Assembly: GCA_007280335.1 (NCBI GenBank)
Contig: QYQE01000046.1
Coordinates: 1-32,000 of the forward strand
Direction of reading: 5' to 3'
DNA length: 32,000 nucleotides
Origin: Nitrosopumilales archaeon
GTDB taxonomy: Archaea; Thermoproteota; Nitrososphaeria; Nitrososphaerales; Nitrosopumilaceae
Every line of letters begins with the position of its first letter. Position 1 is the stretch's first letter. The notes beneath the pieces were generated by a model. It saw only the letters and a program-made list of their open reading frames with translations. It did no database searches and was not told the origin of the DNA. A program made the position numbers and the translations under genes. This document shows, piece by piece, positions 12,880 to 31,194 of this stretch.

Positions 12880-13425
12880 TTACCTTTTCTTTATAGCGAG
12901 GGTTTTTTGTACCTCGTTCATACTACTGATGAATTTCTGCTTTGCTTCATATTCATCTGATACTTTGACGACAATTTCAGATGACGAAAACATGACATCC
13001 TTGACTAAGATTGGAGCGCTTAGTCCTAGCAGCTCGCTCAATATATCAAATATGTTGTTAAACTTGGTTCCGTTCTTGTACCTGAAGATTGTATTACCTT
13101 CGGATAATTTTGGGGGTAATTCTAACGGGATCACCAACTCTGAAGAAATAACCTCTGTAACAAAAGTATTGGTGTCATTTTTTATCATCTCACCTAATTT
13201 TTCTTTTTCAGACACAAGCTCATTTTTTATCTTTTCAAGTTCGCCTAATTCATCATGATATTGTTCTCCTACCATCTTTGCAAAGGTAGATTCGGTGACA
13301 CTCTTTAGTGGTACTTCGTGGATTCTAAAATTAACTCTGGCAAGCTCAGCTTCTACATTGGTTAATTGTTGTCTGTTGGATTTTATCCTCCCAGCTACCT
13401 CTTCAAGATACTGAAAATCAACCAT
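12880..13425 (-). CDS. Uncharacterised 181-aa protein tightly linked to the tubulin-like gene; N-terminal coiled-coil/helical hairpin, mixed C-terminal half
   Basis: ATG lies 10 bp downstream of the tubulin-like stop. Heptad-like charged helices 'LEEVAGRIKSNRQQLTNVEAELARVNFRI' and 'HDELGELEKIKNELVSEKEKLGEMIKN'. I recognised no family motif. Confidence 0.6.
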   Translation of the reverse strand: MVDFQYLEEVAGRIKSNRQQLTNVEAELARVNFRIHEVPLKSVTESTFAKMVGEQYHDELGELEKIKNELVSEKEKLGEMIKNDTNTFVTEVISSELVIPLELPPKLSEGNTIFRYKNGTKFNNIFDILSELLGLSAPILVKDVMFSSSEIVVKVSDEYEAKQKFISSMNEVQKTLAIKKR

Positions 13426-13435
13426 CTTTCAATAC

Positions 13436-14824
13436 CTAACTAAACTGATGAACTACGTCCATCAGACTCTGCTTGAATTCTTCTGTAGTCAAACCCCATC
13501 TGCCATATTCCTCCTTGTAAGCATCCCATGAGACTTCTGCTTCACTAGCAATTTCAAGTATTTTTGGTCCTATTGCCTTTGTGTTGACTAGAATTGTGAT
13601 GTTTGCCTGTTCACTTTCAAGTATTGGTATCTTGACAAAAATCATTCTAGAGTCTTCAATGTTAAATCTGTCTTTGATGATTGCCTTGAGAGCATCTCTT
13701 TCTTTTACATCAAATTCTCCGCTAACTTTGACTAGTGCACAACAAGAGTCCTTTGGACCGCCCTTGTCTCGAACATCATTTTCATCAATATCAAACAAAA
13801 GTGCATCTTCTTTTTTATGAATGTGCTCAACAATTCTTTCCATGGTGTTACTTTTTCCTTTTGACATTAGATCTGTGCTCCATATTTTTTCCTCAGATAT
13901 GATTGGGATGACCCATGGGATGGCAAATTTTGGACGTTTTGTTGCAAGCCATGTTCTATAGTTTGACATGTCCCACTCTGTTTCTCTTGCAAATGATGAA
14001 ACAAACATCGAAATGGCACTTGCTGCAATCAGATTCATACCGCGATAATCCTTCCAACCTATTTCTTGTTCTTTTGGAAGATCATCAATTATTGATGGAA
14101 TCTTGTCCAACTTTTTTTCAAATTTATGAGCTAACAGTCTTAGAGTTTTATTTGAAAAGATAATTGAACAATCACTATATTTTATCTGATATTCTAAATT
14201 CATTACGATGTTTATTGCAGCGGCTTCAAAAATTATAGGATCCCAGCCAAACTCTGGTAAAAGCCCCAATGTTGCAATGGTTGCATGTTCCTTAGTGTCT
14301 TTTTTTATGTATTGAATAAATGCACTTGCAAAAGAACTACCAGTTCCACCTCCCATTGCAAACGGTACACAGAATCCCCTTACTGGTTCTGGTGAAAGAG
14401 CTGCAATTTGTTTTTGCATATCGAATTTGGAGCTTACCTCTTTTATGAAACGCGTTCTGCCCTCTGCCCAATTTCTTGCTGCTCCACCTGAACCATGAAT
14501 GACATGTTTGTCCCTTAAAGCAAAAAGATCAGGATATGATTGTAAAATGAGATTGGCAGCTCTTGGATCCAAGTCGATTAGTAATGCTCTTGGGATAAGT
14601 GGTATCTCACCACTTCCATATGATGGTGGAAATCTTAGAATGGTACTGCCATACCTTTTGAGTACTCTTGATTCTTCTTTTTCGCCTTTAAGTGTAGGTT
14701 TGAGCGGGTTTGCCCCCACATCAAGCAGTAATCTTCTGTATGCCTCTGCACCTAATCCTATGCCACAATGACCAAAACATGTCATTAGCACCGGGGCTGG
14801 TGGTAGTGGATCAAACTTGGACAA
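13436..14824 (-). CDS. Tubulin-like GTPase (artubulin-type archaeal tubulin homologue)
   Basis: 462 aa with a TTG start preceded by SD-like GGTGA. Tubulin-style motifs occur in order: 'CFGHCGIGLG' (GQCGNQIG), 'IPRALLIDLDP' (VPRAxLVDLEP), 'HGSGGAARNWAEG' (GxSGAGNNWAKG), 'AMGGGTGSS' (GGGTGSG) and 'YRGMNLIAASAISMFVSSFAR' ([21 protein letters not shown]). Confidence 0.85.
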   Translation of the reverse strand: MSKFDPLPPAPVLMTCFGHCGIGLGAEAYRRLLLDVGANPLKPTLKGEKEESRVLKRYGSTILRFPPSYGSGEIPLIPRALLIDLDPRAANLILQSYPDLFALRDKHVIHGSGGAARNWAEGRTRFIKEVSSKFDMQKQIAALSPEPVRGFCVPFAMGGGTGSSFASAFIQYIKKDTKEHATIATLGLLPEFGWDPIIFEAAAINIVMNLEYQIKYSDCSIIFSNKTLRLLAHKFEKKLDKIPSIIDDLPKEQEIGWKDYRGMNLIAASAISMFVSSFARETEWDMSNYRTWLATKRPKFAIPWVIPIISEEKIWSTDLMSKGKSNTMERIVEHIHKKEDALLFDIDENDVRDKGGPKDSCCALVKVSGEFDVKERDALKAIIKDRFNIEDSRMIFVKIPILESEQANITILVNTKAIGPKILEIASEAEVSWDAYKEEYGRWGLTTEEFKQSLMDVVHQFS

Positions 14825-15006
14825 TATTACTCACCATTATACAGAATCATTTGTCTCTTTAACCAACAAGTGCAAGAATGTAAAGTGTCAACTTGACTGT
14901 TATAGACATTAAACTGTGATAATAGCAATATTTGTCAGCCTATGACAGTCTTGGTGTGATTACATTTAAGATTTAAGGAGAAAAGATTCATCTAAAACAA
15001 AATTCA

Positions 15007-15375
15007 TTAGGTTTCTTTTAGTACTTTCTTTAACTCTTGGAATTCTTCAATGGTGATCTCTCCAGCGGCAAGTCGATTTTTTAGAATTTTAATAGCACTG
15101 CTTCCTTTTGATTGAACTTTTTCTGATTTTTTACTTGTTTCTGATTTTTTATTTTGTCCTTTGGTGTTTTTTGATTTGATTTCTTTTTCAGACTTGGTTT
15201 GTTCTTGTTCCTCTAGAGTTTTAATTAGACTTTCTACATATTTGTAATCTGACAAGTATAGGGGTGTTCCATGTTTTAGTACATTGAAAATCTCATGTAG
15301 TCTATTACTGTCTCCTTTCCCAGAATCAATTAGTTTTTGAACTGTTTTTATTAAATTATCAGACAATTTTTTCAC
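15007..15375 (-). CDS. Small protein: conserved N-terminal 'LIDxGxGDxxRLH' domain, K/E/S-rich linker, C-terminal SHOCT-like helix
   Basis: 122 aa. The GTG start directly abuts the TPR gene stop. C-terminal 'LKNRLAAGEITIEEFQELKKVL' fits the SHOCT pattern. The N-terminus is paralogous to that of ORF 23134..23913. Confidence 0.6.
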   Translation of the reverse strand: MKKLSDNLIKTVQKLIDSGKGDSNRLHEIFNVLKHGTPLYLSDYKYVESLIKTLEEQEQTKSEKEIKSKNTKGQNKKSETSKKSEKVQSKGSSAIKILKNRLAAGEITIEEFQELKKVLKET

Positions 15376-16197
15376 CTATTTTACCAGTGTCCTAAATCGC
15401 AAGTCATCTTTTATACTCTTAAATGATTTGTCCTTTATTGCCCATTTTTTAATAGTTTTACCATAATATGATATAGCTTCTGCAAGTAGGATCAATGAAT
15501 CATTAATTTCACCAATCTCTGCCTTGCTGCGGGATTTGGCATATATCACATTGCCATTTTTTGGATGTTCTTTTAAGACTAGATCAAACGCTGAAATGGC
15601 ATCTAAATGCCTGCCAAGCTCGGCTAGTTCGGTTCCTCTGTAAAATGATACCTCATTATGTTGAGGATCTATCTTGAGTACACTATCAAAACAGGCAAGT
15701 GCTCCCTCATGTTTTTTCTGTTTACCAAGCACCAATCCTTTGTAAAACAACGCATCGATGTTTTGTGGTTCTAATTCCAGACAATGATCAAGACAAGATA
15801 TTGCTTCTTCGTATAGACCAAGTTTATTTTTTGCAATTGCTTTATTGTAAAAGGATGCAGCGTAATCTGGTTTGATTTTCAATGCTTTGTCATATGATGC
15901 TATGGCCTGTTCATAATGATCTAGTTCTGCAAGTGCATTTCCTATGTTGTTAAGAGCGGCAACATGTTTTGGATCTACTTCTAAAATTTTTTCAAAGCAT
16001 GATATTGCATCCCTGTTTTTATCAAGATTAGTCAGTGCAAGTCCCTTGTGGTACAAGGCATCGACATTTTGAGGATCTGTTTTTAGAACCTTGTCAAAAA
16101 ATGAAATCGCATCCTTGTGTTTGCTAAGCTTGGCAAGTGAGATTCCTTCAGAAATTAACACGTCAATGCCCTTTGCCGGTTCAAAAAACTTCATCAA
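15376..16197 (-). CDS. Tetratricopeptide (TPR) repeat protein (start probably ATG at 16194)
   Basis: 273 aa with about 7 tandem 34-aa units, each with the 'A...Y.kAL..dP....A....G.al' pattern (e.g. 'DAISFFDKVLKTDPQNVDALYHKGLAL'). Confidence 0.85.
   Translation of the reverse strand: MMKFFEPAKGIDVLISEGISLAKLSKHKDAISFFDKVLKTDPQNVDALYHKGLALTNLDKNRDAISCFEKILEVDPKHVAALNNIGNALAELDHYEQAIASYDKALKIKPDYAASFYNKAIAKNKLGLYEEAISCLDHCLELEPQNIDALFYKGLVLGKQKKHEGALACFDSVLKIDPQHNEVSFYRGTELAELGRHLDAISAFDLVLKEHPKNGNVIYAKSRSKAEIGEINDSLILLAEAISYYGKTIKKWAIKDKSFKSIKDDLRFRTLVK

Positions 16198-29723: not shown

Positions 29724-31194
<1,471 letters not shown>

Follow-up and report, generated by a model that had tools for sequence, protein, structure and literature searches.

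An artubulin gene and its constant downstream neighbour on a chromosomal segment of a Nitrosopumilales archaeon

The DNA analyzed here, which we refer to as the window, comprises the first 32,000 nucleotides (nt) of contig QYQE01000046.1 (assembly GCA_007280335.1) of a Nitrosopumilales archaeon. On its reverse strand, which also carries the p181, SHOCT-domain and FtsZ-like genes described below, the window has a gene for artubulin, a tubulin-like protein, at positions 13436..14824. The coding sequence starts with TTG, ends with TAG and encodes 462 amino acids (aa). It is recognized by its open reading frame, by the Pfam family PF00091, by a full-length match to a tubulin profile, by its predicted fold and by its identity to the artubulin of Nitrosoarchaeum. 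A gene for a protein of 181 aa, here called p181, lies 10 nt 3' of the artubulin stop codon on the same strand (12880..13425). The artubulin reading frame contains, in this order, CFGHCGIGLG, IPRALLIDLDP, HGSGGAARNWAEG, AMGGGTGSS, YRGMNLIAASAISMFVSSFAR and WDMSN, and the protein ends in ...MDVVHQFS. Homologues fall into at least 160 clusters and, in 80 loci compared, the first and second codon positions are invariant while the third is saturated. Thus, the reading frame is a real gene.

The start codon had been left ambiguous in a preliminary description of this locus, between TTG 14824, preceded by GGTGA at a spacing of 6 nt, and ATG 14785. Both the Shine-Dalgarno-like GGTGA (14831..14835) and its distance to the TTG codon (14822..14824) are as described, and the comparison of the 80 loci favors TTG. 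Codons -9 to -1 before ATG 14785 show the coding pattern, with invariant first and second positions and a saturated third position, and their product PLPPAPV(L/I) is invariant. The sole start candidates in these loci are found 13-14 codons 5' of the internal ATG. Nitrosotenuis and several other lineages use ATG at this upstream position, and the Nitrosotalea-like lineages use TTG, often with a stop codon 2-3 codons further 5'. In addition, (G/A)GTGA(T) is retained at the Shine-Dalgarno place in most loci, and GGTGA (14835-14831) is complementary to the 3' end of the window's own 16S rRNA, GGATCACCTCCT. Because of the coding-type conservation before ATG 14785, the upstream position of all candidates and the pairing of GGTGA with the 16S rRNA, we assign the start to TTG 14824 and not to ATG 14785. 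The N-terminus would then read MSKFDPLPPAPVLM..., and the TTG start differs from the ATG of the named artubulins. Many public gene calls of the homologues begin at the internal ATG (447-450 aa) and lose the conserved N-terminal PLPPAPV segment. The fixed N-terminus is relevant to the design of expression constructs.

The artubulin family, which belongs to ammonia-oxidizing archaea, has been known since 2012, when it was named by Yutin and Koonin in Candidatus Nitrosoarchaeum (PMC3349469), and near-identical sequences are public. It was also noted in the 2013 genome paper of Ca. Nitrosotenuis uzonensis (PMC3835317), has been reviewed and included in phylogenies, and has served as an outgroup in studies of 2023 and 2026 (PMC9871819, PMC13394414). 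The preliminary description had linked the gene of the window to the Nitrosoarchaeum protein. Using the two artubulin sequences in Additional file 1 of PMC3349469, we find that the protein of the window agrees with Nitrosoarchaeum artubulin GI 340345009 at 315 of 390 aligned residues (81% identity). At this level of identity the gene is evidently an ortholog of the named artubulins, and it shares with those of Nitrosoarchaeum and N. uzonensis the N-terminus, the loops, the C-terminal ...MDVVHQFS, the host family and the thaumarchaeal chromosomal setting. Relatives are found in 128 or more species-representative genomes, including Ca. Nitrosotalea devanaterra, many metagenome-assembled genomes (MAGs) of Nitrosotalea and Nitrosotenuis, and other Nitrosopumilaceae. 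The closest is encoded by a soil MAG (98% identity), and the loci of Ca. Nitrosotenuis species show 79-81% identity. The family forms three deep clades in the Nitrososphaerota, and the gene occurs once per retrieved assembly (80 retained loci from 80 different assemblies).

The public annotation of these proteins is uneven. Artubulin orthologs (P0001, P0009, P0054, P0081 and others) are labeled 'cell division protein FtsZ' by NCBI and 'tubulin gamma' by JGI, and the former label is misleading. An artubulin and p181 pair (81% and 56% identity) is also found in an assembly titled 'Gammaproteobacteria bacterium BBSC-SA02' (locus L063, BMAH01000059.1). Most likely, a thaumarchaeal contig was mis-binned there.

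The relationship of artubulin to tubulin on the one hand and FtsZ on the other was examined at several levels. In the Pfam scan the GTPase domain common to tubulin and FtsZ (PF00091) was matched at residues 14-229 with an E-value of 1.8e-15 and 58 bits, against a cutoff of 33. An NCBIfam scan that included the ftsZ model (TIGR00065) returned nothing for artubulin. When the sequence was searched against the PDB, the best 60 of 173 matches were all tubulins and none of these 60 was an FtsZ. The matches include Asgard AtubB (4e-17) and AtubA (4e-15) and gamma-tubulin (4e-12), as well as OdinTubulin, alpha-tubulin, beta-tubulin and BtubA, and the PDB tubulins score higher when the family profile replaces the single sequence. 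Comparison of a profile of 45 artubulin-family sequences with a profile of 32 tubulins from the databases (hhalign) gave a probability of 99.9% and an E-value of 1.3e-32 over 403 columns, spanning residues 5-456. The strongest match of the family profile to a single sequence is to gamma-tubulin (98.1%, E 8.5e-14). By contrast, E. coli FtsZ aligns over 22 columns with a probability of 4%; the conclusions from the comparisons with single sequences of alpha-tubulin, gamma-tubulin and E. coli FtsZ were re-derived with database sequences.

The window itself provides a control, since a second member of the tubulin/FtsZ superfamily (PF00091), an FtsZ-like protein of 317 aa, is encoded at 137-1090. 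All 49 of its PDB sequence matches are FtsZ, and it scores 61 bits with the NCBIfam ftsZ model, far under the cutoff of 295; artubulin matches neither that model nor, among its best matches, an FtsZ structure. The control protein retains T1 (GLGGAGCKLA), its T4 is degenerate (MANLAGKSGAALAP in place of GGGTGTG), and it is a divergent FtsZ-like protein, probably of the known thaumarchaeal type. The artubulin profile aligns with it over 63 columns with a probability of 9.8%. Beyond the common GTPase domain, the likeness of artubulin to FtsZ is confined to the region of T4.

The tubulin-type motifs that had been matched by eye in the preliminary description all hold in computed alignments, with a shift of T7 by one residue in one of them. 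T1, the PRA..DL.P block, T3 and T4 are matched to tubulin in several alignments, where GHCGIG, GGAARNWAEG and AMGGGTGSS align with GQCGNQ, GAGNNWA and GGGTGSG of tubulin, respectively. Divergence is considerable, as the identity to any tubulin is just 16-23% and the H1-S2 region (36-72) aligns with tubulins only with gaps. When 1.84 billion cluster representatives were searched with the family profile, the whole artubulin family was represented by one full-length match at 709 bits, and the next full-length protein scored 93 bits. Of the 83 long proteins among the matches that follow the family, 59 contain Tubulin_C and none contains FtsZ_C. By its sequence the artubulin family is thus an isolated island that has the tubulins as its nearest neighbours.

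Among these nearest non-artubulin matches are three divergent prokaryotic tubulin-like proteins of 422-503 aa (P0248, P0258 and P0260, at loci L085-L088). They are without Tubulin_C, one is without any Pfam match, and two align across most of the artubulin profile. They share with artubulin a (V/M)IP...P motif after H8, and in the catalytic column discussed below P0248 has Glu and P0258 has Asn. No p181-sized gene is seen after the tubulin-like gene on their short contigs.

The predicted structure points in the same direction. An AlphaFold2 model built from the family alignment has a mean predicted local distance difference test score (pLDDT) of 77.7 and a predicted template modeling (TM) score of 0.84. 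It displays what appears to be a complete tubulin fold, with the GTPase domain, H7, the intermediate domain and two C-terminal helices (416-441 and 447-461, pLDDT ~90) that are placed as H11 and H12 of tubulin and align with its C-terminus. In a Foldseek search of the PDB the 50 best matches of the model are all eukaryotic tubulin chains, mostly beta-tubulin, with E-values of ~1e-20. TM scores reach 0.72/0.79, and the match to beta-tubulin (0.72/0.78) extends over ~470 alignment columns. Across tubulins, TM scores to the model are 0.65-0.72 with 16-18% identity. Phage PhuZ and FtsZ/tubulin-like models reach 0.38-0.48 with 9-12% identity and E-values of 3e-9 to 4e-4.

Since the profile, fold and nearest-neighbour tests agree, the placement of artubulin with the tubulins and not with FtsZ is supported by both its sequence and its modeled structure. 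Three points weigh against this placement. The Pfam profile Tubulin_C (PF03953) does not match artubulin at E-values up to 1, and it takes profile-profile or fold comparison to detect the corresponding domain. The phylogeny of Findeisen et al. (2014) grouped the artubulins with TubZ (PMC4202323). In the latest analysis they sit on a very long branch and their position is left unsettled (PMC13394414). Together with the gap in score between the family (709 bits) and the next full-length relative (93 bits), these points would suit a fast-evolving offshoot of FtsZ, CetZ or TubZ in which the tubulin-like features are convergent or a long-branch artefact. If this view, which is that of Findeisen et al., were correct, it would be misleading to speak of artubulin and to connect the family with the origin of eukaryotic tubulin. 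We consider it improbable, because the tubulin profile is matched along the whole protein, with the C-terminal domain and H11-H12 included, whereas FtsZ is matched over just 22-63 columns with probabilities of 4-10%. FtsZ_C is found in none of the 83 nearest long relatives, the PhuZ and FtsZ/tubulin-like models are structurally more distant than the tubulins, and the same genome keeps a separate FtsZ-like gene. Santana-Molina et al. (2023) likewise came to this conclusion on the basis of shared indels (PMC9871819).

The nucleotide site is well preserved. Across 45 family members the invariant nucleotide-contacting positions are G18, G21, N118, G158-G162, N205, N225, Y260 and N264, and most of them fall in columns that are at least 90% conserved across tubulins. 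In T4, whose tubulin signature GGGTGS (residues 158-163, 14336..14353) aligns with GGGTGSG of tubulin, M157-G162 is invariant and S163 is variable. Judged by these residues, all the nucleotide-contacting loops of artubulin are intact. The longest conserved run of the protein is elsewhere, in the T7 loop and H8 (RETEWDMSNYRTWL, residues 280-293, 13946..13987), which align with G246-L259 of alpha-tubulin and in which 13 of 14 positions are invariant. T3 and T5, loops of the top surface, equal T7 in conservation. Conservation is lowest (0.40) in the M-loop-like segment (308-330), which carries a deletion of ~15 residues in one clade.

Within the superfamily of tubulin and FtsZ, the T7-H8 surface works only in trans, on the nucleotide of the following subunit, and the residue that activates hydrolysis there is Glu254 in alpha-tubulin and Asp212 in E. 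coli FtsZ. Both a MAFFT alignment with 82 relatives and the profile-profile alignment bring H7 of artubulin into register with that of tubulin and WDMSN into register with VDLTE of alpha-tubulin and ADLRK of beta-tubulin. In these alignments D285 falls on D251 of alpha-tubulin and N288, encoded by AAC at 13961..13963, falls on Glu254 of alpha-tubulin and Lys254 of beta-tubulin. This Asn is invariant across the family. An acidic residue at the start of H8 is required for a homopolymer to hydrolyse its own GTP, but not all tubulins have one. The Asn does not exclude membership in the tubulins, because beta-tubulin and gamma-tubulin likewise have no acidic residue at this position. We regard the conservation of T7-H8 as the best indirect sign in this analysis of a longitudinal interface. 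The alignment published in 2012 (PMC3349469, Additional file 1) leaves out residues 278-323 (T7, H8 and S7) and a block at ~331-350; hence the catalytic position lies outside it.

Compared with eukaryotic and Asgard tubulins (AtubA/B, OdinTubulin), artubulin has in common the whole-length fold with two C-terminal helices, loops T1-T6, the guanine contacts made by Tyr and Asn of H7, and the motifs PRA..DL.P, G.GGA..NWA.G and GGGTGS. It differs from them in its low identity, in the Asn at the place of the catalytic Glu, in the unmatched Pfam Tubulin_C, in an M-loop-like region that is variable and partly deleted, in a gapped H1-S2 region and in a C-terminus (...MDVVHQFS) without a tail rich in Glu and Asp. 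Furthermore, each retrieved assembly has one artubulin gene, whereas AtubA and AtubB are encoded in tandem (PMC13394414).

A p181 homologue is located no more than 40 nt 3' of artubulin in 75 of the 75 species loci that leave room for it, while the other neighbours vary by lineage. The same arrangement is seen in two deep clades, in which artubulin is 52-55% and p181 28-30% identical. Searching from the side of p181, we find artubulin 2-15 nt upstream in 73 of 76 metagenome loci. The two genes thus form a tight, conserved unit. The remaining three loci, where p181 has no artubulin upstream, count against an absolute pairing in gene order. The uncoupled full-length p181 genes are those of L118, L150 and L159, and the genes next to p181 in L118 and L159, which lie on the opposite strand, encode 161-aa and 279-aa proteins. 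In L089 (Ga0105164_10002301, 11.9 kb) p181 is 100% identical to that of the window, which means that this public sample contains essentially the same organism.

No Pfam, NCBIfam or PHROG family was found for p181. Its model (pLDDT 89) consists of two helices of ~34 residues, a small beta-rich domain and a C-terminal helix, and a Foldseek comparison with solved structures matched no fold (best E 0.08). Several candidate identities were considered and set aside. Snf7/ESCRT-III is rejected because none of 28 homologues matches Snf7 at E-values up to 1 and no ESCRT-III chain is among the 50 best Foldseek matches. A weak profile match to methane monooxygenase protein B (E 0.026) finds no support in the fold search, and the sub-threshold Pfam matches to Dam1, KIF21A, HMMR and Mis12 are coiled-coil noise. 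In the artubulin literature that we found, p181 is neither named nor discussed, and PMC9871819 goes no further than to note unknown coiled-coil genes in the vicinity of archaeal tubulin-like genes. Nor does this literature state the settled TTG start, the invariant Asn or the constancy of the p181 partner.

The remaining surroundings of the gene are ordinary for a thaumarchaeon. The flanking genes encode TruD, a secreted NHL propeller protein, a TPR protein, a Na+/H+ exchanger, an M1 aminopeptidase and a VTT protein, and the rest of the window is ordinary as well. An archaeal small subunit (SSU) rRNA gene starts at 29724, 14.9 kb from artubulin, and is followed by the large subunit gene. The order of eight genes from the M1 aminopeptidase to TruD is identical in the complete chromosome of Ca. 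Nitrosotalea devanaterra and in dozens of MAGs. This common gene order excludes a chimeric or contaminated contig, which agrees with the preliminary description, where eukaryotic contamination had been dismissed on the basis of the flanks and an rRNA operon 15 kb away. The best matches to eukaryotic and Asgard tubulins and the narrow distribution among archaea could still suggest a foreign gene, through contamination, a chimera or a very recent transfer. We judge this highly improbable. Besides the synteny, the flanks and the archaeal rRNA operon, the three deep clades within the Nitrososphaerota and an identity of 16-23% to any tubulin speak against it, and among the 1.84 billion representatives there is no donor outside the Nitrososphaerota with more than 50% identity. 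An ancient transfer into an ancestor of these archaea may have occurred; it would bear on the origin of the gene and not on its authenticity.

Two genes lie directly 5' of artubulin. The first, at a distance of 182 nt, encodes a SHOCT-domain protein of 122 aa (15007..15375; Pfam SHOCT 2.1e-08). A SHOCT homologue is found no more than 400 nt 5' of artubulin in 51 of 72 species loci, in 6 of which the other genes of the upstream block are not kept, and none was found in the Nitrosotenuis loci retrieved. The SHOCT gene may be a third, lineage-restricted component. The second gene, at 15376-16197, encodes the TPR protein and is confined to the Nitrosotalea-type gene block. No match to Snf7/CdvB was obtained in the 30 open reading frames of the window that were scanned (at least 100 aa). 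This differs from Nitrosoarchaeum, where a Snf7 gene next to artubulin drove the functional prediction of 2012 (PMC3349469). Snf7 is also absent beside the artubulin of N. uzonensis (PMC3835317). The Snf7 neighbour is specific to Nitrosoarchaeum and, unlike in the 2012 account, the constant neighbour is p181.

How might artubulin work? We favor, as a probable though far from certain mechanism, a GTP-binding protein that forms a head-to-tail homopolymer, has weak intrinsic GTPase activity and works with p181 as a dedicated partner. In this mechanism artubulin would bind GTP, and its subunits would join head-to-tail as homopolymeric protofilaments. They would touch through the canonical longitudinal contact, with T7-H8 of one subunit set against the nucleotide of the next. 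T7-H8 is the most conserved surface and has no known role inside the monomer. Because the trans-activating residue is an invariant Asn, we expect the intrinsic turnover of GTP to be slow, or else to require a further residue or factor. A microtubule-type lattice seems unlikely, as the M-loop-like segment is the least conserved part and is partly deleted in one clade. The p181 protein, with its long helical hairpin and small alpha/beta domain, would most likely bind artubulin as a regulator or adaptor. The role of artubulin in the cell may lie in shape, division or positioning.

Some of our observations weigh against this mechanism or its details. One of three alignments, that of the family profile with a single alpha-tubulin (hhalign), shifts the T7 register by one and places Tyr289 at Glu254. 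We set this register aside because the MAFFT and profile-profile alignments both give N288, as had been proposed by eye, and because the N288 register fits the predicted start of H8 at 286. The trans-activating position would not be acidic in either register. The model is weak exactly at the T7 loop (281-286) and in the M-loop region (314-322), where pLDDT is below 50, and for this reason the catalytic register depends on the sequence alignments. The invariant E281, E283 and D285 of the T7 loop could provide a catalytic carboxylate. Finally, the analysis shows the identity, the fold, the operon and the conservation of residues, and polymerization, GTP binding, hydrolysis and the contact between artubulin and p181 are inferred. 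No experiment on artubulins is reported in PMC3835317, PMC9871819 or PMC13394414, and the earlier statement that polymerization, structure and role are without experiments agrees with the literature of 2013-2026 that we found.

The main competing explanation is that artubulin does not form filaments. It would instead be part of a stable complex with p181 that serves as a GTP-dependent switch or that caps or nucleates in the manner of gamma-tubulin, with T7-H8 as the dock for p181. The invariant Asn is consistent with this, as gamma-tubulin also lacks an acidic residue there and is the strongest single-sequence match of the family profile, and so are the strict co-inheritance of p181 and the poor conservation of the M-loop-like region. 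However, the loops T3 and T5, turned toward the next subunit in all known polymers of tubulin or FtsZ, are as conserved as T7, and this fits a two-sided, self-complementary interface. Nearly every characterized family of the superfamily polymerizes. The evolution of p181 is also much faster than expected for a protein that buries the most invariant surface of artubulin: in the two deep clades the artubulins are 52-55% identical and the adjoining p181 proteins 28-30%. We therefore hold a non-polymerizing complex to be unlikely. A more specific form of the polymer mechanism, which we put forward tentatively and would not expect to hold, is an obligate two-component tubulin system. In such a system the carboxylate has been lost (Asn288) and p181 controls hydrolysis as well as the turnover or capping of the filaments.

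Prokaryotic tubulins with a dedicated partner are known from Prosthecobacter, in which BtubA and BtubB are encoded in an operon with the non-tubulin accessory protein BtubC. The resemblance to artubulin and p181 has limits, because BtubA and BtubB are two paralogs near alpha- and beta-tubulin and BtubC is a TPR protein, whereas there is a single tubulin gene here and p181 has no TPR. The TubZ and PhuZ systems, in which one self-polymerizing protein is encoded together with a small adaptor, serve as a working analogy. In contrast to these, artubulin is chromosomal, vertically conserved and not on a mobile element, the structural likeness to phage PhuZ and FtsZ/tubulin-like models is far weaker than that to tubulins, and p181 carries no DNA-binding family signature.

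Very few proteins of the tubulin family occur outside eukaryotes, Asgard archaea and Prosthecobacter. The artubulins are among them, and their place in the origin of tubulin is disputed. An invariant Asn within the most conserved surface predicts polymers that would be stable or regulated by a partner. Given that p181 is directly downstream in all of the species loci with room for it, artubulin is best studied together with p181. If the two-component system were true, it would be a pair of tubulin and cofactor independent of the eukaryotic cofactors, stathmin and the TubR or BtubC adaptors, in which p181 has a fold unseen in solved structures.

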